DNA of 35,920 bases from an uncultured Candidatus Saccharibacteria bacterium (GTDB taxonomy: Bacteria > Patescibacteriota > Minisyncoccia > Phycocordibacterales > DATDWN01), in the NCBI GenBank assembly GCA_964551495.1, contig CAZKCA010000006.1, forward strand, positions 1 to 35,920, in the 5' to 3' direction. Position 1 is the stretch's first letter. Every line of letters begins with the position of its first letter. Positions 3,820 through 35,901 of the stretch are shown piece after piece. The translations under genes and the position numbers were made by a program. Below the pieces are notes generated by a model. That model was not told the origin of the DNA. It did not search any database and worked only from the letters and a program-made list of their open reading frames with translations.

Positions 3820-4003
3820 TGACCTTATGGGGAATCTTCCGCGAGTAAAAATTTTCCGTCGAAAATTTTTCTCGTGTCCGCAGCTCGCGACCCGTCGTGT
3901 TCGACGGGTACCCCGCTCCGCTTTTCGATTCCTCACGAAAACCTATAACATAGGTTTTCTGTAGGGTCATGCAAAAATCGCCTTTCGGCGATTCTGCTTT
4001 GCA
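3820..4003 (-). repeat. tRNA-tail element Glu-2 (CGGAGC...GGTCGCGAG core type), ending in a degenerate third copy of the tRNA-Glu tail
   Basis: Minus-strand order is as follows. First a 15-bp perfect palindrome containing the tRNA tail (3961-3975 / 3998-4012). Then hairpin GAAAACCTATGTTATAGGTTTTC, then GAGGAATCGAA (inverted T-loop), then AAGCGGAGCGGGGTA. Then the CCCGTCG-AACA-CGACGGG hairpin, TCGCGAGCTGCGGACACGAG and the AAAAATTTTC-GACG-GAAAATTTTT hairpin. It ends in GATTCCCCATAAGGTCA (3820-3836, 2 mismatches to the tRNA-Glu tail). Confidence 0.75.
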
Positions 4004-4125
4004 TGACCCTACGGGGAATCGAACCTTACAGGATCAGTACCCCGATTGAGATATTTTATTTCGCAGGCTCATAAAATATCTCAATCGGGCTTCGATTCCC
4101 CAGACTTTTTTACTTCATAAAAATG
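4004..4125 (-). repeat. tRNA-tail element Glu-1 (long AT-hairpin type), ending in an exact 22-nt copy of the tRNA-Glu tail
   Basis: tgaccctacggggaatcgaacc occurs at 4004-4025 and inside tRNA-Glu at 4126-4147. The interior carries GGGGAATCGAAG (inverted T-loop), a 19-bp hairpin CCCGATTGAGATATTTTAT / ATAAAATATCTCAATCGGG, then GTACTGATCCTGTAA. Confidence 0.8.
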
Positions 4126-11258: not shown

Positions 11259-11894
11259 TTAGTTTATTTTTCCAGGCCAAAAACTTATTTTTTGAATAGG
11301 AAGAAGTCTAATAATAGGTTTGCCTATTATCTCTTCTTCTTTCAATGTCCCCCAAGATCTTGAGTCATAACTTTTTGGACGATTGTCTCCCATGACAAAA
11401 TATTCGTCTTTGCCAAGTATGACCGTAAAATCTGCCTGAGATTTGTTGACTATAAAAGTTTCGTCGAGTATCAAACCGTCAGGGTTTTCATCATTTATTA
11501 TTGTTATTTGAGAACCTTTCATTTTGACCGTTTCTTCAGGTAGACCTATTATTCTTTTTATTAGATTTCTTTGGCTATCTGTTTTAAAAGTTGGGTCTTT
11601 TAGATTGAAAACAATAACGTCGTTTCTTTTTAGATTTTTATTTTGGACGCTAATTTTTTCAACTATAAGATAGTCGCCAGATTCAAAAGTTGGACTCATT
11701 GATTCTCCGGAAACTACATAAGGTTCAGCGATAAAGTATCTAAAAGGTAGTACTATACCAAAGGCTATAATCGCAAATATAACAACTTCTTTTAAGATAG
11801 ATTTTAAGGTAGAAGATTTTTTTTCTTGGGGTACTATAGGAGCATTATTTTCCTCATTCATGGAGCTATTATACAGATAATGTTTTGTTGACAC
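11259..11894 (-). CDS. lepB: Signal peptidase I
   Basis: SGESMSPTF (catalytic Ser), KRIIGLPEE (Lys) and GDNRPKSYDSR boxes, with an N-terminal TM segment. Confidence 0.9.
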   Translation of the reverse strand: MSTKHYLYNSSMNEENNAPIVPQEKKSSTLKSILKEVVIFAIIAFGIVLPFRYFIAEPYVVSGESMSPTFESGDYLIVEKISVQNKNLKRNDVIVFNLKDPTFKTDSQRNLIKRIIGLPEETVKMKGSQITIINDENPDGLILDETFIVNKSQADFTVILGKDEYFVMGDNRPKSYDSRSWGTLKEEEIIGKPIIRLLPIQKISFWPGKIN

Positions 11895-11945
11895 AATAGG
11901 AGAAAGTGTAATGTAAAAAATAGTAAATAAAATCTTGTTGAGACT

Positions 11946-12030
11946 CTACATATTTGGAGACTTCGCAAGCGCGACGGCGCGAGACCGAGCAAAATTTCAG
12001 CAGAAATTTATGCGTGCTCCAAATATGTAG
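11946..12030 (+). repeat. Orphan member of the tRNA-tail element family, bounded by perfect 14-bp terminal inverted repeats
   Basis: ctacatatttggag (11946-11959) pairs with ctccaaatatgtag (12017-12030). The interior GCGC-GACG-GCGC hairpin and AAAATTTC-AGCAG-AAATTT hairpin match unit Lys-B (25706-25790). No tRNA is adjacent. Confidence 0.75.
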
Positions 12031-15549: not shown

Positions 15550-18021
15550 ATGGCCAAAAAAGACACAGAAAAATCTAGCGAAGAATTGAAGCCTGTTTTA
15601 GGTGGAAATGTCATACCTCAAGAGATTACAGATGAAATGAAGAGGTCTTTTATAGACTATGCTATGTCTGTTATTACAGATCGTGCTCTGCCAGATGTTA
15701 GAGACGGTCTAAAACCTGTTCACAGAAGAATTCTTTATTCTATGAATGAAAATGGTCTTACTATTTCTGGTAAGACTAGGAAATCTGCGACGGTGGTTGG
15801 ATCTGTGATCGGAGATTATCACCCCCATGGTGATGTGGCTGTTTATGATGCTATGGTAAAAATGGCTCAAGACTTTACCATGCGTTATCCTCTCATTATT
15901 GGTCAAGGAAACTTTGGTTCTATAGATGGTGATAACGCTGCGGCTTATAGGTATACAGAAGCAAAAATGTCCAGACTAACATCTGAAGTTCTAAGAGACA
16001 TAGAAAAAGATACCGTTGATTTTATTCCAAACTATGATGGTACCAAAAAGGAACCAAAAGTTTTGCCTACTGCTGTGCCAAATCTTTTGTTAAATGGAAC
16101 ACTTGGTATTGCTGTTGGAATGGCCACAAATATTCCTCCTCACAACTTAGGTGAAGTAATGGACGCAGTTAACCATCTTTTGGATAACCCAGAAGCTACA
16201 ACAGATGATTTGTTGCAATTTGTAAAAGGGCCAGATTTTCCAGTAGGAGGTGTCGCTTTCAATCAAAAAGATATTTCTCATGCTTACGCACATGGTAAAG
16301 GTGGTGTTGTTGTCAGAGGTGTGGCCGAGGTTGTTGAAACCAAAGCAGGACAATTTCAAATTGTCATAACCTCAATACCTTTCAGAGTAAACAAGCAGAC
16401 TTTAGTGGAAAAAATCGCCGAGCTTTTAAGAGACAAAAAACTTGAAGGTATAAAAGGTCTTCGAGATGAATCAGCTAAAGATATAAGAGTAGTGATTGAT
16501 TTGAAAGGGGGAAGTCATCCTCAAAATGTTTTGAATTTCCTATACAAACATACTCAATTAGAAGACACATTTCATTACAATATGGTTGCCTTGGTAGATG
16601 GAGTACCTCAGACGCTTTCTCTAAAAGATGTTTTGGAGGAGTTTGTAAAGCACAGGAAGGAAGTAATTAAAAGAAGAACAGAATTTGATCTAAAAAAAGC
16701 ATTAGAAAGAGAACATATTCTTTTGGGTCTTAAAAAAGCATTAGATCATATAGATAAAATAATCAAGTTGATCAGAGGCTCAAAAGATACTCCAGAAGCT
16801 CACAAAAATTTGATAAAAGAGTTTAAGTTTTCTCCTATTCAAGCAACAGCTATTTTGGAAATGAAGCTCCAAAGGCTTGCTGGTCTTGAGAGAAAGAAGA
16901 TAGAAGATGAGCTAAAAGCAGTTCAACTTTTGATAGAGGAACTAAAGTCTATTTTAGGAAGTGTTAAGAAAATTATTTCTATAATTAAAAAAGAATCAGA
17001 AGAAATAAAAGAAAAGTATGGAGATGAAAGAAGGACTAAAATAATGAAAGGTGGGGTTCAAGTTCTTTCTGTGGAAGATCTTATACCAGACGAAGAAAAT
17101 GCTTTGGTTTTGACTGCTGGTGGGTATATAAAGAGAACAAACCCAGATGAATTTAGAAAACAAAGACGAGGTGGTGTGGGTGTGGTTGATTTAGATACCA
17201 AAGAAGAAGATTTTGTCACTCACCTTTTAACCGCTTCTACTCATAATGATCTTTTATTCTTCACAAACAAGGGGAAAGCTTATCAGACCAAGATGTATGA
17301 TATTCCAGAAGGTAGAAGAGCAACAAGAGGAAAGTCTGTTATGAATTTTTTGCCACTTTCCGAAGGGGAGAAAGTTACTGCAATTTTGCCTATGCCAAAA
17401 GAAGTCAAAAAATCTGACTCTTCAATAATGATGCTTACAAAACATGGTGTGGTCAAAAAATGTAGCGCCGCTAGTTTTCATGATGTAAGAATTTCTGGAA
17501 TTATTGCAATCAAACTAGATGGTAACGATGAGCTAGTTTCAACTTCTTTTGTAAACAAAAAAGATACATTTATTGTTGTGACAGAAAAAGGTCAGGCTAT
17601 TCATTTCAAGGAATCTGATATAAGAGAAATGGGTAGAACAGCTATGGGAGTGAGGGGAATAAAACTAGGTAAAGGAGATTCTGTTATTTCTGCTGATGTT
17701 GTTCCAAATACTTGGGACAGTCCTACACTTATGGTCATTTCTGAAAATGGTTATGGTAAAAGGACAGATATAGATGAATATAAAATCCAAAATAGAGGAG
17801 GTTCTGGAATAAAAACAGCAAAAGTTACATCTAAAACAGGTAAACTTATCTCAGCTAAACTTTTTGAAAACGATGATGCAGAAGTAGTAGCAATGTCTAA
17901 AAAATCTCAAGTTATAAGAACAGATGTAAAAGAAATTCCTGTACTAGGAAGACAAACTCAGGGTGTTAGAATAATGAAACTTCGCGAAGGGGATGGAATT
18001 GCATCTCTTGTGTGTTTGTAA
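15550..18021 (+). CDS. gyrA: DNA gyrase subunit A
   Basis: [22 protein letters not shown] (active-site Tyr region) and C-terminal beta-pinwheel repeats, 823 aa. Confidence 0.95.
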
Positions 18022-20090: not shown

Positions 20091-20093
20091 TTT

Positions 20094-20522
20094 ATGAAAA
20101 AAACCTTAATACATTCATTAATAATTTTTAGCTTAGCTTTCTTTGCTTTAACTTCTGTATCATTTGCTCAATCAGGTATAGAAGGTAACCAGCCTCCAGC
20201 TACACCAAGCGAAACTTCTGGCTATAGAGGGGTCATCCCTAATTGTCAGGGAAACACTTGTACTTGGAATGATATTATTAAGACAATAGATTATCTTGTT
20301 GATTTGGCTATGGGTATTGCTCTTGTATTTTCTTCGGCAGTTATAGCTTTTGCTGGATTTAAATATATGTCTTCCGGAGACAATCCAGGCAAGAGAAAAG
20401 AGGCAAATACAATGCTTCAAAAAGTTGTTATTGGAATTGTTTTGGTTATGGGTGCTTGGGTAATAGTTAATTTAATATTTACAGCTTTAGGTGCAGATCA
20501 GTCCATAAGATTTGCAATATAA
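20094..20522 (+). CDS. VirB2/TrbC-like (T4SS-type) pilin-family small membrane protein, paralog 1 of 6
   Basis: Signal peptide ending FAQ, then two hydrophobic helices joined by the FKYMSSGDNPGKRKE loop. Confidence 0.55.
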   Translation: MKKTLIHSLIIFSLAFFALTSVSFAQSGIEGNQPPATPSETSGYRGVIPNCQGNTCTWNDIIKTIDYLVDLAMGIALVFSSAVIAFAGFKYMSSGDNPGKRKEANTMLQKVVIGIVLVMGAWVIVNLIFTALGADQSIRFAI

Positions 20523-20526
20523 AAAT

Positions 20527-20946
20527 ATGAAAAAAACTTTAATACATTCATTAATAATTTTTAGCCTAGCTTTCTTTGCTTTAACTTCTGTATCATTTGC
20601 TCAATCAGGTATAGAAGGTAACCAGCCTCCAGCTACACCGAGTACTCCGAGCAATAATACGAGTTATGATATAAAAATAACAAACCCTTTGAAGGTGGGG
20701 GATAAGCTTACGGACATAATAGTGGCTGTTTTAAATAATGTTGTTATGCCTATAGCAGCAGTGGCAGCTGTGCTCTATATAATCTTGGCTGGTTTCAAAT
20801 ACGTTTCTGCCAGAGGTAACCCTGCCAAGATACAGAGTGCTCATCAAAATCTATTATGGGCGCTAGTTGGAACTGGTATTTTGTTAGGTGCAGCTGGTAT
20901 TTCTAGGGTTTTACAAAATACAGTAAATCAGTTTTTAATAAATTAA
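20527..20946 (+). CDS. VirB2/TrbC-like pilin-family protein, paralog 2
   Basis: True start at MKKTLIHS. The first 120 nt are nearly identical to paralog 1. Helix-loop-helix GFKYVSARGNPAKIQ. Confidence 0.55.
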   Translation: MKKTLIHSLIIFSLAFFALTSVSFAQSGIEGNQPPATPSTPSNNTSYDIKITNPLKVGDKLTDIIVAVLNNVVMPIAAVAAVLYIILAGFKYVSARGNPAKIQSAHQNLLWALVGTGILLGAAGISRVLQNTVNQFLIN

Positions 20947-22562: not shown

Positions 22563-23906
22563 CTAGTAAAACTCAATCTTGTATTTTTCTTCTTTTTCGG
22601 TCATCGACCGATATCGAAGAGTTTTGATTTGCTGGTCTCGGATTTTTGCTCGGCCAGCTTTTTTGGGATCAAGTTCAATAACCTGATCCCCATTTATTTC
22701 AATCTGGGTAATTTCTTGCCCTAGACGATCGGAAGAGAAATTCCGACCATTAACCTCAATTGTTTCAGACCATTTTCCACCTGTTGGGGCGGTGATGATC
22801 AGTGTTTCCTTTGCCACTACCGGAGCGGTTGCTTCGGTAGAAGCTTTCCAGGCCGTCAGACCTGTTTGGTTATAGAGGTAGAGTGCTGCGAGGAAGTTTC
22901 CTTCCTCGGCTTCAGGATTGATATCCTTTATCTGGACATCATTTCCAAACCCGTTGACCTTGCGGTCAGGGTAGGCTGATACCTCCCTATACCATGAAGT
23001 CAGGTTGATTTGGTGTAAGCCTCGGTCGTTGCAGTTAATTCTGCCAACCAGGGCTTGCGAGCCATCGGATTCGAGATGGTTGTATTGAGACTCTCGTTCG
23101 ATGATCTTCATCATCTGTTCAAGATCCTCTTTGCTTTTGGCATGTTTGGACCAGAATTCTCTAGCCTTTTTTTCTCCCTCGGCGTTTGGGCCAGGGATAG
23201 GGCCGAGATTTCCAATTTCAGGACAGTCCGTTGGTGACGGCCGTCCAGAGGTTGCTTTTAGGTCCTCCGTGTTTGGTGGCGGATTAAGCCACGGGTCAAT
23301 CCATAGATTGAACACAAGGCCTGCCAGGGCAGCCCATATAACTGCATTACCAAACCCTGTGAGGACGTTTTCTTTTTTGCCTCGTTCCACCTTTTCTTCC
23401 CGAAGGAAGAGGTAGGCTAAGGCAATTGCCACTTGAGTAAAAACCGTCCACCAGTTTAGGATGTACTCTTTGTATCCCCACGTATCGTGGAAGAAAACAG
23501 CGAGCACTAAGTGTGTGAGCCCCAGTCCAACTAGTGGCTTCCAAACCTTTTTCCAGGTTTTAGTCAACCAGGATTCTCTATTTGGGTCTGGAGGATTTTT
23601 GATTATCTTTTTTCTCCATCTGATGAATAAAAATCCACCAATAGGGAGAAGAATTGATAGGACTAACACTGTCCACCACAACCATACTGGCATACCAGCA
23701 TCTAACTTTTGCAAGTAGACAAAGGTTTTCAGAATAGTTGTTGTTGTTAAGTAAAGGGCAATGACCACTAACACCAAAATGGTAATTGTGACCAAAGTTA
23801 TTCCAAGAGTTTTACCAATCAGACCAAGGGTCTTTTTGGTCGGTTTGACTGATGACAAGAAGTTGTCAATCAAATCGAAGGGTTTTTTTAACCAATCCCA
23901 GTTCAC
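22563..23906 (-). CDS. Polytopic membrane protein with a C-terminal lytic-transglycosylase (SLT)-like domain
   Basis: About 6 N-terminal TM helices. IIERESQYNH...DRGLHQIN...AALYLYNQTG fits the SLT E-S ... GLxQI ... Y..G pattern. GC is clearly above the window background. A minus-strand terminator lies at 22523-22559. Confidence 0.5.
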   Translation of the reverse strand: MNWDWLKKPFDLIDNFLSSVKPTKKTLGLIGKTLGITLVTITILVLVVIALYLTTTTILKTFVYLQKLDAGMPVWLWWTVLVLSILLPIGGFLFIRWRKKIIKNPPDPNRESWLTKTWKKVWKPLVGLGLTHLVLAVFFHDTWGYKEYILNWWTVFTQVAIALAYLFLREEKVERGKKENVLTGFGNAVIWAALAGLVFNLWIDPWLNPPPNTEDLKATSGRPSPTDCPEIGNLGPIPGPNAEGEKKAREFWSKHAKSKEDLEQMMKIIERESQYNHLESDGSQALVGRINCNDRGLHQINLTSWYREVSAYPDRKVNGFGNDVQIKDINPEAEEGNFLAALYLYNQTGLTAWKASTEATAPVVAKETLIITAPTGGKWSETIEVNGRNFSSDRLGQEITQIEINGDQVIELDPKKAGRAKIRDQQIKTLRYRSMTEKEEKYKIEFY

Positions 23907-25048
23907 TTCTTTCCTCCTTCTGTTGGTAGTCCGATTTGGACCCCTGTCCCTCCTGCTACGTATGTGGTTAGTTTACCTACTGCTTCTGCATTGATCTCTG
24001 CTACAACTGTAGCCGTAGCAAGTCTCAACGCTTCAGGGGCAGGCATACCACCTTTAACGTACATTTCCATAAGAGCGGATACTCTTCTTGTTTTAGCTTC
24101 AGCTATCTTCGCAATATATCCTCCTTCTCCATCAGCTTCAGCCAATTTTGCATTAGCTTTTTCTTTTGCGATGCGGGTTGCCTCTAGAGCCTCTTGCATT
24201 TTTTCAGCAGCCTTAGAGATTTCAGGGTCACTGATGTATAGGTGTTTTACTTTTACGCCAAGAGGTTTAAGTCTCAGGTTTAAGTCTTCCATTGCTTCAC
24301 CGAACTTTTCGGTGCCCAATTGTTTATCGGACTTTTCGCCTTTACCTTTATATGTTTCCCAGTCCATTTTAAGAACTTGGTTAGAAATAAAGGTTCCGAT
24401 GATATCGCTGATGGTCTGTAAAAAACCATCACTATATACTTCAAAGAAAGGTCTGGCATCCTCAACTTCAACAATTGCTGTGCTAAGGATATTGAACCGG
24501 ACCTGATCTTTGGTATCTAGTTCGTGATGATAGGTAGGTCTTGGAAACTCGGCATAGAGTCCGTATTTTTTTACTTTCGATGCTTTGAGTGCACTAGAAA
24601 GTCGGATTTTTTCTTGAGGAGTTTCTTCTGTGTCTTTTCTTACAACTCTGTCTATATAGACAGGTTTTACGTTCCTAAGATAGGGGAGCCCGATCCAGCG
24701 AACACCAAATGTCTTGATTAGCCAAGACTGTATAGATATTTCATTTCTAACTAGATTAGTTAGATTTTCAATTGTAACCTTAGTGTTAACCCTTTTGGGT
24801 TTAAGTTTACCATCTGGTCTTATCTCCTTACCTTTAACATTCCCTACATAATTGATTATAGGGCCGTTTTCCTCATTTCCGGCCACTATGGCTCGGATGA
24901 GGTTGGGTGTCTCATCCACAAACCCAAGACTTCGCCAGAAGCCCCATTTTTCAGAGGATTCCTGTTCCTCTGGTTTTCTGACTAGCAGTCCAGTGATAAC
25001 GATTATCACTGTTGCTATTAATGATAGAGAGGCAAAAAAGATTAACAT
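23903..25048 (-). CDS. Membrane-anchored protein with SPFH/band-7-like features (tentative)
   Basis: N-terminal TM and an Ala/Glu/Lys-rich C-terminal coiled region (EALEATRIAKEKANAKLAEADGEGGYIAKIAEAKTRR). 4-nt overlap with the downstream gene. High GC. Confidence 0.35.
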   Translation of the reverse strand: MLIFFASLSLIATVIIVITGLLVRKPEEQESSEKWGFWRSLGFVDETPNLIRAIVAGNEENGPIINYVGNVKGKEIRPDGKLKPKRVNTKVTIENLTNLVRNEISIQSWLIKTFGVRWIGLPYLRNVKPVYIDRVVRKDTEETPQEKIRLSSALKASKVKKYGLYAEFPRPTYHHELDTKDQVRFNILSTAIVEVEDARPFFEVYSDGFLQTISDIIGTFISNQVLKMDWETYKGKGEKSDKQLGTEKFGEAMEDLNLRLKPLGVKVKHLYISDPEISKAAEKMQEALEATRIAKEKANAKLAEADGEGGYIAKIAEAKTRRVSALMEMYVKGGMPAPEALRLATATVVAEINAEAVGKLTTYVAGGTGVQIGLPTEGGKK

Positions 25049-25128
25049 CTTTTCTCCTTTTCAAGATTGAATTTTCAAGGAACCGACTAGAGGTTTGACC
25101 CTAAAAGCCAGAACCTATTCCGTTATTA

Positions 25129-25157
25129 ATTCTATCACAAAAAGGCTAAAAAGTCAA
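25129..25157 (-). promoter_or_regulatory. Sigma70-like promoter for the GC-rich two-gene operon
   Basis: On the minus strand: TTGACT, 17-nt spacer, TAGAAT. AAGGAG RBS before the ATG at 25048. Confidence 0.55.
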
Positions 25158-25213
25158 GCTAAATTTTAATAAAAAAACAGCTCAACAAAGAGATATTTTT
25201 AATATTTTTATTA

Positions 25214-25394
25214 GTGGGCAAGGGGAGACTTGCCTCCAAATTTTCTTTCGTCGTCACTCAAGAAAATTCTAGGCGCCAGATTTCCGACAAGCTCTGTTGA
25301 GCTTGTAGACCGGAAATCTGTTCGAGTCACCTCACACAAAAATATATTTTTGCTATTGCTCCGACGAAAAAACCGGCTTTCGCCGATTTTCGTG
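25214..25394 (-). repeat. tRNA-tail element Leu-TAG (Leu type), ending in a 17-nt copy of the tRNA-Leu(TAG) tail
   Basis: gtgggcaaggggagact occurs at 25214-25230 and 25394-25410. Minus-strand order is as follows. Hairpin+U-tract, then GGTGACTCGAAC (inverted T-loop). Then a nested hairpin AGATTTCCG[GTCT ACAAGCTC-AACA-GAGCTTGT]CGGAAATCT and GGCGCCTAG. Then the AATTTTCTT-GAGTGACGACGA-AAGAAAATT hairpin, then the tail copy. Confidence 0.8.
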
Positions 25395-25476
25395 TGGGCA
25401 AGGGGAGACTCGAACTCCCAAGCCGTGAGGCACTAGTTCCTAAGACTAGCGCGTATACCAATTCCGCCACTTGCCC
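25395..25476 (-). tRNA. tRNA-Leu (anticodon TAG), class II long variable arm
   Basis: GGGCAAG/CTTGCCC acceptor, CTAGT-CTTAGGA-ACTAG anticodon arm, GGGAG-TTCGAGT-CTCCC T-arm. No CCA encoded. Confidence 0.9.
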
Positions 25477-25529
25477 AATGATTTATACTTTATAATATTT
25501 TTTTAGAAAAAGAAAGAGGGGATTTTTTT

Positions 25530-25705
25530 GAATCATGTGGTCAGGAATAAAAAAGGATTCTTCCGTGAGTAAAACTTTACTGTCCGCCTTGTTGTCGAGA
25601 CAGGTCGCAAAATTTTCTCGTGTCCGCAGCTCGCGACCAAGTCTGCTGACTTGGTACCCGCTCCGGTCTGCACATGTAAGAAAAAATCTGGAGCAGTCCA
25701 GATTT
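25530..25705 (-). repeat. tRNA-tail element unit Lys-A (distal), including its hairpin/U-tract module
   Basis: The core GACCGGAGCGGGTACCAAGTCAGCAGACTTGGTCGCGAG is shared with the Trp element. It ends ATTCCTGACC + ACATGATTC. The hairpin at 25681-25705 is identical to 26004-26028 (25 nt). Confidence 0.75.
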
Positions 25706-25815
25706 GAATCGTGTGGTCACAAATAAATTTCTGCTGAAATTTTTCGCGACCCCGGCTTGGCCCGTCGGCCTGCGCCTTGCACATGTAAACAAAAACAGCA
25801 TAACATGCTGTTTTT
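25706..25815 (-). repeat. tRNA-tail element unit Lys-B with its hairpin module
   Basis: ACATGTGCAAGGCGCAG, a GGCC-GACG-GGCC hairpin, GGGGTCGCG, an AAATTTC-AGCAG-AAATTT hairpin, then ATTTGTGACC + ACACGATTC. Preceded by the hairpin AACAGCAT-gtta-TGCTGTT plus T-run. Confidence 0.75.
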
Positions 25816-25894
25816 GAATCATGTGCACCCAGCAGGAATTTCTCCTACAATTTTCTTTCGTCGTCACTCAAGAAAATTCTAGGCGCCAGATTTT
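25816..25894 (-). repeat. tRNA-tail element unit Lys-C (truncated Leu-type unit), ending in a 19-nt exact copy of the tRNA-Lys tail
   Basis: 25819-25837 equals 26035-26053. The 45-nt block aattttctttcgtcgtcactcaagaaaattctaggcgccagattt is identical to the Leu-TAG element. Confidence 0.8.
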
Positions 25895-26029
25895 AATCTT
25901 TGTGGTCACAGATAATTTCCTCGTCGTCACTCGGAAATTTCCGCGACCCCGTCTCGCTTGTTTTGCTTGGTAGCAAAACATAGCTCCGCCTTGCACATGT
26001 ACTAAAAAATCTGGAGCAGTCCAGATTTT
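25895..26029 (-). repeat. tRNA-tail element unit Lys-D (proximal), including its hairpin/U-tract module
   Basis: The hairpin AAAATCTGGACTGCTCCAGATTTTTT follows tRNA-Lys. Then ACATGTGCAAGGCGGAGC, a GTTTTGCT-ACCA-AGCAAAAC hairpin and GCGAGACGGGGTCGCGG. Then an AATTTCC-GAGTGACGACGA-GGAAATT hairpin and ATCTGTGACC + ACAAAGATT. Confidence 0.75.
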
Positions 26030-26039
26030 ATTAGTCATG

Positions 26040-26112
26040 TGCACCCAGCAGGATTCGAACCTGCGACCATCTCCTTAAGAGGGAGTTGCTCTACCACCTG
26101 AGCTATGGATGC
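26040..26112 (-). tRNA. tRNA-Lys (anticodon CTT)
   Basis: GCATCCA/TGGGTGC acceptor, ACTCC-CTCTTAA-GGAGA anticodon arm, GCAGG-TTCGAAT-CCTGC T-arm. No CCA encoded. Confidence 0.9.
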
Positions 26113-26115
26113 GTA

Positions 26116-26263
26116 TGTGCTCGGAGTGGGAATCTCCCTCGAAATTTTTTCGTCGCCACTCAAAAATTTCTGGGCACCGGTTTGTCGACAAGCCCTGTTG
26201 GGCTCGTAGACCGACAAACCGTTCGATTCTCACGCACAAAGCTTTGCTTTGTTTCCGTGGCTG
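26116..26263 (-). repeat. tRNA-tail element Leu-TAA (Leu type), ending in a 19-nt copy of the tRNA-Leu(TAA) tail
   Basis: tgtgctcggagtgggaatc occurs at 26116-26134 and 26262-26280. Same module order as the Leu-TAG element, with compensated stem changes. The distal tail copy lies 3 nt from the 5' end of tRNA-Lys. Confidence 0.8.
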
Positions 26264-26345
26264 TGCTCGGAGTGGGAATCGAACCCACATCCCTTTCGGG
26301 ACAACATTTTAAGTGTTGCGTGTATACCAGTTCCACCATCCGAGC
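26264..26345 (-). tRNA. tRNA-Leu (anticodon TAA), class II
   Basis: GCTCGGA/TCCGAGC acceptor, CAACA-CTTAAAA-TGTTG anticodon arm, long variable arm, GTGGG-TTCGATT-CCCAC T-arm. Confidence 0.9.
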
Positions 26346-26346
26346 A

Positions 26347-26826
26347 TTAAATATTTTTACCAATATTTTTTCCTCTATGTGTAGGTTGAAGACTATGACA
26401 GTTTGGACACAAAATCCTCAAATTTTCTAGTCTATTATCGTACCTATTACCATTTACGTGGTCTAGTTCTAAAGGAATTCTACCGTCTGTCGATATTTTA
26501 GCCCAACCACATTGTTCACATTTTGGCTCTTTTAGTTTAGCTGAAAAAAGTCTTTTTTTCAACTTAAAACTCTGATATGTACTTTTTGAAACTAGAATTT
26601 TATAAAGTGGTATTATTGGATTTTCTCCAAATTTCATACCCTTATTCCATGTCATTCCAGTAAAATGAGAAGTATCTAGGTTATTTTGTTTTACGTATTT
26701 CTTAACTTGTTCGTAGTTTCCACCAGTAGGTTTCAGTCCTAAAAGTTTTATAACATTTCTAATACTTTTAGATTTTTTAACTGCCTTTATGAGCTGATCA
26801 TCTGACCATTTTCTAATTCCACCCAT
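26347..26826 (-). CDS. Free-standing HNH endonuclease (homing-endonuclease-like) with an N-terminal HTH-like domain
   Basis: CEQCGW...LELDHVNGNRYDNRLENLRILCPNCH is the zinc-bound HNH motif. The stop codon lies 1 nt from the tRNA-Leu(TAA) 5' end. Confidence 0.8.
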   Translation of the reverse strand: MGGIRKWSDDQLIKAVKKSKSIRNVIKLLGLKPTGGNYEQVKKYVKQNNLDTSHFTGMTWNKGMKFGENPIIPLYKILVSKSTYQSFKLKKRLFSAKLKEPKCEQCGWAKISTDGRIPLELDHVNGNRYDNRLENLRILCPNCHSLQPTHRGKNIGKNI

Positions 26827-34283: not shown

Positions 34284-34446
34284 CAAAATAATTCCCGTAA
34301 GGGAATTTTTTGATTGACGCCGGAAGTAAACCTCTGGGAGAGGTTTACGTTAGGATTCGAAAACCTGTGATAACTTTTTGTGCGAGTAGCAACAAAAAGT
34401 AGAACAGGTGTACCGTTCATGTAATGAAAGAATCCTTCCCGGCGCA
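34284..34446 (+). repeat. tRNA-tail element Tyr (long AT-hairpin type), ending in a 17-nt copy of the tRNA-Tyr tail
   Basis: gaatccttcccggcgca occurs at 34267-34283 and 34430-34446. The interior starts with the hairpin AATTCCC-gtaa-GGGAATT plus T-run. Next comes an inverted tail copy, TGACGCCGGAAG-[hairpin]-GTTAGGATTCGAA. Then a long hairpin AACCTGT...ACAGGT and GTACCGTTCATGTAATGAAA. Confidence 0.8.
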
Positions 34447-35690: not shown

Positions 35691-35830
35691 TTTGCGGGAG
35701 ATGGAGGAATCGGTCAGGAATATTTTTTTCGTCGTCACTCGAAAAATTTCCCGACCCGGACTCGCGACCAAGTCTGCTGACTTGGTACCCGCTCCGTCTT
35801 TCGATTCCAAAGATAAAACCTTTGGTTTTG
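35691..35830 (-). repeat. tRNA-tail element Trp (CGGAGC...GGTCGCGAG core type), ending in a 22-nt exact copy of the tRNA-Trp tail
   Basis: tttgcgggagatggaggaatcg occurs at 35691-35712 and 35827-35848. Minus-strand order is as follows. Hairpin CCAAAG-gttttat-CTTTGG, then GGAATCGAA (inverted T-loop) and AGACGGAGCGGGTA. Then a CCAAGTC-AGCA-GACTTGG hairpin, TCGCGAGTCCGGGTCGGG, and a hairpin with loop GAGTGACGACGA. Then ATTCCTGACC and the tail copy. Confidence 0.8.
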
Positions 35831-35901
35831 CGGGAGATGGAGGAATCGAACCCCCGACAACGGTTTTGGAGACCGTTGTTATACCACTTAACTAATCTCC
35901 C
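35831..35901 (-). tRNA. tRNA-Trp (anticodon CCA)
   Basis: GGGAGAT/ATCTCCC acceptor, ACGGT-CTCCAAA-ACCGT anticodon arm, GGGGG-TTCGATT-CCTCC T-arm, discriminator G. No CCA encoded. Confidence 0.9.

Follow-up and report, generated by a model that had tools for sequence, protein, structure and literature searches.

Prophages and genomic islands that tyrosine integrases place in tRNA genes leave the tRNA intact and stack at one tRNA, and a direct repeat that starts in the T-loop and stops shortly beyond the tRNA 3' end is reportedly the classical signature of such tRNA-integrating elements. We examined a 35,920-nt stretch of contig CAZKCA010000006.1 from an uncultured Candidatus Saccharibacteria bacterium (the window, below), in which short structured segments with these same properties follow most tRNA genes. 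Six of the eight tRNAs in the window are followed, within 220 nt, by an exact 17–22 nt copy of their own 3' tail (it is missing only behind tRNA-Val and tRNA-Cys), and a chance origin of these copies is excluded. Read in the sense of the tRNA, the architecture consists of the tRNA 3' tail, a hairpin, an arm complementary to the tail, a folded core and a second copy of the tail. Unlike the integrase-borne elements, the segments measure 100–190 nt rather than kilobases, lack conserved att arms, and possess a conserved folded core, a target-complementary arm and a second junction register (tRNA positions 72|73) that duplicates only trailer sequence. We found no integrase or recombinase gene, no kilobase cargo, no Pfam-matching open reading frame (ORF) between the repeats, which lie ~100–220 nt apart, and no recurrent neighbour. 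We place roughly even confidence in the view that these are insertion-derived elements without proteins of their own, that base pairing leads them to tRNA 3' ends, and that their stacks arose by repeated insertion and recombination.

Among other described systems, IS200/IS605 transposons and their non-autonomous derivatives (palindrome-associated transposable elements, PATEs, and the repetitive extragenic palindromes REP/REPIN with their RAYT transposase) are likewise small, hairpin-rich and strand-specific in structure; they choose a site by pairing between an internal guide and the flank, insert 3' of a short target and are mobilised in trans. In contrast, the arm of the elements described here is 9 to more than 20 nt long and target-specific instead of a fixed tetranucleotide, the ends are not conserved, and the tail duplication is long; conservation extends to P3, the helix that closes the core, but not to the 5' hairpin. 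TnpA, RAYT or other Y1 transposase genes were not noticed in the window or among the recurrent neighbours of the loci examined, and no IS605-type RNA of Rfam matched. Class C group II introns are structured RNAs that also insert just downstream of hairpins or terminators through short pairings spanning the junction; they need at least 600 nt, compared to 63–90 nt for the cores here, which have no domain V/VI, no reverse transcriptase and a target copy in place of splicing, and the Rfam scans returned no group II intron. Theta ribozymes, minimal relatives of the hepatitis delta virus (HDV) ribozyme, are small, occur in many copies next to phage tRNAs and are proposed to act on the 3' trailer (PMC10879173). 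They lie no more than 5 nt from the tRNA and fold as an HDV double pseudoknot, whereas the cores here lie 35–267 nt downstream, have a simple three-helix fold without an HDV-family match at E ≤ 10, come with arm and tail copies, and belong to cellular Patescibacteria without having been found in the viral collections searched. Integrative mobile elements exploiting Xer (IMEX) of the CTX-phi type offer an analogy only: sense and antisense target copies can fold into a target duplex, and units accumulate in polar tandem, but there is no dif site here, the targets differ in sequence, the units have no genes, and the link to Xer is by analogy.

Two further classes fit no better. Each tRNA has its own arm and tail, matched to the local target, and the duplication measures 2–22 nt, which is not the pattern of a miniature inverted-repeat transposable element; with TnpB/IscB omega RNAs or CRISPR RNAs the elements have in common only the layout of a scaffold followed by a 3' tail. 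Rfam 15 at gathering scores returned only tRNAs across the whole window and, at E ≤ 10 within 25100–26400, only tRNA-related and noise matches; hammerhead, HDV, twister, pistol and hatchet ribozymes were considered and found no support. A literature search of incomplete coverage gave no description of such elements, theta ribozymes being the only related item. Since neither an Rfam 15 model nor a description in the literature searched was found, and each comparison with a clear outcome fails on a defining feature, we rate the family as new; within that incomplete coverage it is apparently undescribed, and its mechanism is putative.

The stack that drew attention to the family lies on the minus strand behind tRNA-Lys(CTT) (26040–26112; predicted by ARAGORN, 68.2 bits with the Rfam tRNA model), which has its discriminator A73 at 26040 and does not encode CCA. 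A first-pass annotation had described four units here with a duplicated hairpin, and all the sequence features that it described were found. Going away from the tRNA, the order is a hairpin, unit D, unit C, a hairpin, unit B, a copy of the first hairpin and unit A, so that the stack comprises three units of core type I, D, B and A, whereas C is of type II and only its 3' part is present. The 5' module of unit D (25992–26039) contains a copy of the trailer, CATGACTAAT, a hairpin with a CTGC loop (AAAATCTGGACTGCTCCAGATTTTTT, 26029–26004) and the arm ACATGTGCA (26000–25992). This arm is complementary to the end and flank of tRNA-Lys, and together with the tRNA end the module folds as a single long hairpin, whose left arm starts in the acceptor end (TGCACATGACTAA...), whose apex is AAAATCTGGA-CTGC-TCCAGATTTT and whose right arm ends in ACATGTGCA. 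The core of D (25904–25991) belongs to the 88-nt class of type I, with helices P1, P2 and P3 and the 3' end GTGACC, and matched the covariance model R1 with 81.7 bits (E = 4.5e-20).

Behind unit D, a degenerate flank copy, ACAAAGATTAAAATCTGG, is fused to unit C (25819–25903, delimited by repeat search), in which 45 nt are identical to 25239–25283 of the tRNA-Leu(TAG) element. As the annotation had noted, unit C ends in an exact 19-nt copy of the tRNA-Lys tail and flank (TCCTGCTGGGTGCACATGA, 26053–26035, repeated at 25837–25819). Unit B has a 5' module (25778–25818) with a flank remainder, TTCAAA, a hairpin with loop GTTA (AAAAACAGCATGTTATGCTGTTTTT, 25815–25791) and the arm ACATGTGCA (25786–25778), and a core of the minimal 63-nt class of type I (25715–25777; R1 57.4 bits, E = 1.2e-13). 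The 5' module of unit A (25669–25714) consists of a flank copy, ACACGATTC, the second CTGC-loop hairpin (25705–25681, an exact repeat of the 25-nt core of the first) and the arm (25677–25669). Its core (25539–25668, from repeat search, with a partial R1 match of 17.4 bits) is a mosaic of type I with the 3' end ATTCCTGACC and, before that end, a remnant of the Lys tail (GAATCCT) in the T-loop register described below. The flank ACATGATTCAAAAAAATCC... (25500–25538), without a hairpin, closes the series, and a flank copy was indeed found after each unit. Units D, B and A all close with TGACCACA (last base of GACC at 25904, 25715 and 25539, respectively), which has one further site, at 17455–17448. 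The second copy of hairpin and arm at 25669–25705 is real and 37 nt long; its partner is 25992–26028, not 25993–26029, and the two differ at two positions rather than three. None of the ORFs crossing the array had a Pfam match.

The three sites of ACATGTGCA are the only ones in the window, and the annotation had taken this sequence as the start of the units. Its complementarity to the tRNA-Lys end and flank held; at other tRNAs, arms such as GGAATCGAA, GACTCGAAC and AGGATTCGAA occupy the same position. Each is the reverse complement of the local T-loop and T-stem: GGAATCGAA for tRNA-Trp, GTGAGAATCGAAC for tRNA-Leu(TAA), GAGGTGACTCGAAC for tRNA-Leu(TAG), GGGGAATCGAA for tRNA-Glu and AGGATTCGAA for tRNA-Tyr, and in RNAfold predictions the arms base-pair with the T-loop and tail of their own tRNA. 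We therefore read ACATGTGCA as a target-matching arm and not as the terminus of an element.

Segments of 120–190 nt with this architecture lie behind tRNA-Leu(TAA), tRNA-Leu(TAG), tRNA-Glu (two units), tRNA-Tyr and tRNA-Trp. On the minus strand, the tRNA-Trp element (35691–35829; R1 78.3 bits) has its arm at 35808–35800, a type I core at 35712–35799 and an exact 22-nt tail copy (35691–35712 = 35827–35848). The tRNA-Leu(TAA) element (26113–26261, minus strand; arm 26233–26221, exact 19-nt tail copy 26116–26134 = 26262–26280) and the tRNA-Leu(TAG) element (25214–25393, minus strand; arm 25333–25320, exact 17-nt tail copy 25214–25230 = 25394–25410) both belong, with unit C, to type II, which has GGTCTACRAGCYCAACAGRGCTTGTCG and a GAGTGRCGACGAAA loop. 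Behind tRNA-Glu(TTC) two elements share 3820–4125 on the minus strand: the first (~4004–4125) is of type III with an exact 22-nt tail copy at 4004–4025, and the second (3820–4003) is a type I variant with a decayed tail copy at 3820–3836 (15/17) and an R1 match of 32.7 bits at 3841–3923. Type III also includes the tRNA-Tyr element (34284–34446, plus strand; arm 34352–34361, exact 17-nt tail copy 34430–34446), and ends ...GTACTGANNCTGTAAGKTTC in the Glu and metagenome copies. One degenerate type I unit is an orphan (11946–12030, plus strand; R1 21.2 bits, E = 4.6e-4, at 11968–12019). It is intergenic, far from any tRNA, and closed by a perfect 14-bp inverted repeat, CTACATATTTGGAG / CTCCAAATATGTAG; the base of its P3 has changed from GGTC/GACC to GAGC/GCTC with pairing retained.

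Across the loci, including those from metagenomes described below, the tail copy starts directly after GACC and at one of two fixed positions in the upstream gene. In the T-loop register the junction is C56|R57 (offset –17 from the ARAGORN end), and the copy holds the 17-nt tail with 1–5 flank bases; in the end register the junction is 72|73 (offset –1, N73), and the copy holds 4 to ~20 nt of discriminator and trailer. In a strict test, the arm had to pair without gaps over 6 bp or more, counted from its last base ahead of the core, and to start exactly 3 nt left of the register; 24 of 45 non-redundant units passed (14 in the T-loop register, 10 in the end register). Where units failed, the arm mostly had an internal GA/AG mismatch, or the end called by ARAGORN was shifted. 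Pairing from 3 nt to the left in both registers indicates that the arm spans the junction and that the distance from junction to core is fixed. The junctions follow G-N-N-C (GTTC, GYGC; the end of the unit itself is GACC) and no fixed sequence. Tail copies include flank bases and carry no CCA where the gene has none, which argues that they derive from the gene or its precursor; an origin from mature tRNA was rejected on the same grounds.

The relation between arm and tail changes with the apparent age of a unit. Units with identical tail copies (16–17/17) have arms that match just 6–14 of 17 tail positions, whereas units with a decayed downstream tail (3–14/17) have arms that match the functional tail at 13–17 of 17, often in perfect palindromes of 18–24 bp. 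This series suggests that the downstream copy is not under selection and that complementarity of the arm to the tRNA tail is kept or improved. Synthesis of the tail copy from the arm was rejected, as the tails of young copies match the tRNA tail while their arms are imperfect. Two tRNA-Val loci (L044, L093) have near-identical cores, with the downstream tail intact in one and decayed in the other.

Copies of type I were collected from metagenome contigs with the pattern GCGAGWCSGGGTCGSGRAAN{12,42}STGACC, which was derived from the window and biases the sample to one core subtype. It returned at least 120 loci, and among the matches listed 97 low-GC loci (543 kb) hold real units; loci above 58% G+C were chance matches to ABC-transporter Walker A codons (GESGSGK) and were discarded. 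The metagenome loci were placed taxonomically by composition only. Among the matches listed, 48 of 73 distinct units with enough upstream sequence to be testable have a tRNA or transfer-messenger RNA (tmRNA) gene on the same strand within 330 nt upstream, compared to ~5% expected by chance; these genes end 35–267 nt before the core, and an opposite-strand gene occurred in five cases. The tRNA genes cover at least 14 amino-acid specificities (Arg, Ser, Tyr, Thr, Ile, Val, Glu, Ala, Lys, Leu, Trp, Asp, Cys, Gln), and tmRNA is among the targets as well. The association was also visible without the core pattern: among 123 tRNAs in the metagenome loci, a tail 12-mer or longer recurs within 300 nt downstream of 23, and a complement of the T-arm, 9-mer or longer, within 300 nt downstream of 29; both counts are zero for the 300 nt upstream. 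We read the elements as a widespread superfamily of ~100–190 nt, without proteins, specific for tRNA and tmRNA 3' ends in the ultra-small Patescibacteria.

The pattern had no match in IMG/VR, and blastn of one unit found none in 50,697 GenBank phage records; the bare 17-mer CGCGAGTCCGGGTCGGG had two matches in IMG/VR, which we judged to be chance (high-GC coding DNA). Clustering of the proteins encoded near copies in the 97 loci yielded no recurrent neighbour, and no TnpB-like gene was found in the window, where several 392-aa ORFs are housekeeping genes. Some loci carry arrangements of other kinds. Three units with no tRNA close by (L052, L117, L131) are bordered on both sides by a conserved motif, CCRTMCCYGAAMGATGYAG, which matches no Rfam family and may be another kind of target. 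In L051, L096 and L115 (e.g. L115 369–515, 3947), alternative arrangements of a ~3.6-kb segment lie beside a gene for a 543-aa serine recombinase; the crossover is an AC dinucleotide directly adjoining a type I unit, and the segment resembles an invertible one. Two otherwise 97%-identical contigs (L024 3482–4026, L045 3918–3951) differ by an extra 545-nt cassette in one, bounded by an imperfect ~25-nt direct repeat (..AACTATATGRRAGAATAAAAAA..) just downstream of a type I unit.

The 74 distinct type I cores fall into two classes, of 63 nt and ~88 nt, with a common fold: a 3-bp P1 (GAC/GUC), a GGA/GA internal loop, a variable P2 hairpin, a CG or GG linker and a 16-bp P3 (GGUCG...UGACC), which closes the unit and ends in GACC. 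In this fold 99.1% of cells are paired, compared to 87.1 ± 0.5% in shuffles (0 of 500 reached the observed value) and 34–50% in slid controls, and double-change cells number 168 compared to 40 in shuffles. Several of the supporting exchanges occur at positions that the search pattern had not imposed: an A-U/U-A swap in P1 (55:18, with one break), a C-G/G-C swap at P3 position 6 (60:14, with no break), G-C/A-U at P3 position 8 (45:26) and all the apical pairs. At one P3 position, 43 copies have G.U and 30 have G-C, an alternation that only the tRNA-sense strand can accommodate, whether folded as RNA or as single-stranded DNA. Two pairs further down stands an invariant G.U, but the search pattern itself had prescribed it, and it adds no independent support. 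The R1 model matched D, the Trp element, B, the second Glu unit, part of A and the orphan in the window, with the scores given above, and had no match in eight unrelated control loci. The same motif, GA-GC(GC)-GACG-(GC)GC-GA, stands at the P2 apex of minimal cores and at the P3 apex of long cores (e.g. 35712–35799); this GACG-loop hairpin, bordered by possible tandem G.A pairs, suggests that a site for protein binding recurs.

The annotation had further proposed that a terminator-like module travels with the element. The CTGC-loop hairpin does recur with copies, and the role of terminator found no support: one of three hairpins in the window (25705–25684) passed a terminator scan, which is the level of shuffles (1.0 ± 1.1). 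In end-register units, hairpin, T-run and ACATGTGCA are the apex and right arm of a palindrome that starts in the acceptor end, and the T-run mirrors an A-run on the opposite palindrome arm. A perfect CTGC-loop hairpin of at least 5 bp occurs in the 5' module of 20 of 98 units, compared to at most two for any other tetraloop, and nearly all other CTGC hairpins in the 97 loci lie just 5' of the T-arm complement of another unit type. These counts mark the CTGC-loop hairpin as a hallmark of the elements. G.U pairs were not significantly asymmetric between the strands of the 5' palindrome (41 vs 28, p = 0.10), and on this count the palindrome does not tell RNA from DNA. A loop–loop contact between CUGC and GCAG was considered; the co-occurrence of the two was inconsistent. 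Directly behind a tmRNA (L058 3103–3668, minus strand) a CTGC-loop hairpin divides the arm of a type I unit: one part is complementary to the acceptor strand and encoded CCA, the other to the T-arm, and the hairpin is flanked by a 3-nt GTG repeat.

The only close genome match through IF-2 was a metagenome-assembled genome of Minisyncoccia (Patescibacteria) with 55% identity (L002), which has a compact version of the tRNA cluster of the window: tRNA-Leu(TAA) and tRNA-Gly are 3 nt apart, and tRNA-Cys and tRNA-Leu(TAA) 34 nt. It has no element behind tRNA-Trp, tRNA-Tyr, tRNA-Leu(TAA) or tRNA-Leu(TAG), all occupied in the window. It holds exactly one minimal type I unit, between tRNA-Lys and tRNA-Leu(TAG) (R1 67 bits), with the sequence GGGCGC|ACAAGTG-cggag-CACTTGTGCG-AGACGGAGC...CCTGACC|ACAAGT. 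By this comparison, most copies in the window are lineage-specific gains. The number of units thus varies among relatives as the annotation had anticipated, with one in this genome and one or two at other metagenomic tRNA-Lys(CTT) loci. The relative also has the only example of core type IV, behind tRNA-Gly. This unit (~11790–11917, minus strand, downstream of tRNA-Gly(CCC) at 11918–11990) begins with a T-loop complement, AGAATCGAAC, 4 nt past the tRNA, followed by ~85 nt of hairpins and an exact 15-nt tail copy. Between tRNA-Cys and tRNA-Leu(TAA), the window itself has a 159-aa HNH endonuclease ORF (26347–26826, minus strand; Pfam HNH and HNH_3), which looks like an insertion of a free-standing homing endonuclease because these two tRNAs are just 34 nt apart in the relative; no tail duplication surrounds it, and none of the other 97 loci has a homologue.

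Several observations point to exchange between copies. The closest copies of units C and A lie at other tRNA loci: C shares 45/45 nt with the tRNA-Leu(TAG) element, and A shares 36/36 nt with the tRNA-Trp element (35761–35796) and 33/35 nt (94%) with the second tRNA-Glu element (3858–3892). Elsewhere, one locus has identical tandem units (L014, three full units of 134 nt and a truncated fourth), two-unit arrays occur in L079 (at least two units), L035, L030, L059 and L098, one type I unit sits inside a type III unit (L075) and one locus has 5'-truncated units (L083). At the nested unit, left arm and right flank share ~2–6 nt, a hint that a unit may bring its own left arm. We conclude that recombination between copies very probably contributed to the array. 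The proposal of serial insertion at one site holds in part: the units are best read as insertions of a definable element family, which the comparisons support, and they are piled behind tRNA-Lys, but not as four clean sequential events, given that C is 5'-truncated and A is a mosaic.

Family membership, the architecture, the two registers, the covariation, the association with tRNA and tmRNA genes, lineage-specific presence and mosaicism are established by these loci. A mechanism consistent with them would run as follows. The arm would select the site by base pairing; the conserved T-arm would let elements pass between tRNAs, and for the end register the acceptor end and trailer would suffice. 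The junction would be measured off, as by a ruler, by the core or by a factor that binds it. The tRNA would keep a complete upstream tail, which would make the insertion harmless, and the downstream copy would be free to decay. New units would land at the same tRNA end and resident units would exchange segments, which would give stacks such as D-C-B-A. The order of events may be that a unit of tail, hairpin, arm and core enters at 56|57 or 72|73 by integrase or CTX-phi-like logic, or that a unit of hairpin, arm and core enters after the tRNA and the paired segment is duplicated; the intermediate would be RNA or single-stranded DNA. We consider it rather doubtful that the elements are gene-less mobile nucleic acids in a full sense, with the core as a ribozyme or a handle for a host enzyme that cuts and joins 3 nt from a programmable arm. 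The tail would then be supplied or duplicated, and the elements would possibly form a programmable insertion class with an RNA or single-stranded circular intermediate.

A number of points weigh against an insertional reading. A search among the loci for near-identical filled and empty sites found none for these elements, so that the boundaries given for the inserted DNA are provisional and either the upstream or the downstream tail copy may be the native one. From the age series, the arm seems not to have been simply copied at insertion, its pairing having been improved or selected later. The tail copy varies in length (2–22 nt), whereas a classical target-site duplication has a fixed one. 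The logic of arm and tail is common to at least four core types that are unrelated to each other, and the core may not determine insertion. At two orthologous tRNA-Ile loci (L038, L122), the 5' hairpin and P3 show paired compensatory changes while the downstream flanks are unalignable, a pattern that would argue for a function at the locus and not just parasitism.

This last pattern supports a different explanation, in which the units are cis RNAs useful to the host, co-transcribed with the tRNA as a signal for 3' processing or stability, or as a mimic or decoy of the tail, and kept by selection, with mobility incidental or ancient and arrays arising by duplication. We regard this as possible though unlikely, and as compatible with an insertional origin. 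Strong conservation of the core, its covariation and the sense-strand G.U pairs all fit a functional RNA. In several loci, including the tmRNA locus, the hairpin splits the arm exactly between the acceptor and T-stem complements, and arm and tail copy could form an acceptor/T minihelix (L058, the L013 group, L099); the young tRNA-Trp copy, however, has no segment that pairs to the acceptor part of its tail copy and could not form one. The same tRNAs do without elements in the relative L002, the downstream tail copy decays freely, and truncated, nested and orphan copies exist. The terminator-like hairpin often stands between tRNA and core, where it would limit co-transcription.

Improbable, in our judgement, is that the units are guide-RNA genes, in which a scaffold carries a 3' guide of ~17–22 nt to direct an RNA-guided effector encoded elsewhere (a nuclease, transposase or repressor) to tRNA genes. 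The conserved scaffold with its strand-specific fold, followed at a fixed junction by 17–22 nt identical to nearby DNA, has the right form. Neither the window nor the recurrent neighbours in the 97 loci include a TnpB, IscB, Cas or IS110 gene, however, and even at E ≤ 10 no omega-RNA or HEARO-type family of Rfam matched. The 5' arm would occlude the guide, which has decayed in many copies and is just 4–7 nt long in minimal ones, and the target would lie ~100 nt away in cis.

We likewise see little chance that one resident unit gave rise to the stack through tandem duplication in place, slippage or unequal crossing-over. Perfectly identical tandem units do occur (L014, L079), and D and A have near-identical hairpins and arms; D, B, A and C are nevertheless different subtypes, and their best matches are at other tRNA loci, not with their neighbours. 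Decayed attL/attR scars of integrase-borne prophages or genomic islands would explain the direct repeats of the classical tRNA-integration type, and are very unlikely: the repeats are just ~100–190 nt apart with no integrase nearby, the same folded core recurs in at least 90 loci, the end-register copies duplicate trailer sequence alone, and the target-complementary arm has no counterpart in att sites. Least probable of all is an assembly artefact, for although the region holds exact repeats of 25–45 nt, at one of which an independent short-read contig breaks, in each unit the shared stretches are bordered on either side by unique sequence, the arrangement makes biological sense (behind tRNA-Lys the unit ends in the Lys tail, behind tRNA-Leu in the Leu tail), and similar stacks appear in many independent assemblies. 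That contig (Logan L001, SRR12977061), 100% identical to window positions 23453–25283, ends exactly at the 45-nt repeat shared with unit C, from which we take it that such repeats break short-read assemblies. The array itself appears not to be a collapsed or expanded assembly repeat, since its units differ from one another in sequence.

The remainder of the window encodes FtsZ, FtsA, TsaD, IF-2, RbfA, S1, gyrase and ClpB, at a G+C content of ~35%. A 117-nt direct repeat with 97% identity (20093–20209 and 20526–20642) is the N-terminal signal and hydrophobic region common to two adjacent small ORFs for secreted or pilin-like proteins (20094–20522 and 20512–20946).

Even if the cis RNA explanation holds, the family is a large uncatalogued class of structured RNA, with at least 90 examples and strong covariation. 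If the elements are protein-less insertions, they would be a new kind of element among tRNA-targeting mobile DNA and a concrete case, open to experiment, in which base pairing directs insertion although no enzyme gene is linked; this would be of interest for programmable insertion tools. They would also account for the recurrent assembly breaks and 'extra tRNA fragments' in this radiation, and the minimal genomes of Patescibacteria, thought to be poor in mobile DNA, would carry dense protein-less structured elements, each with an arm matched to its target and a fixed cutting register, at most of their tRNA genes.

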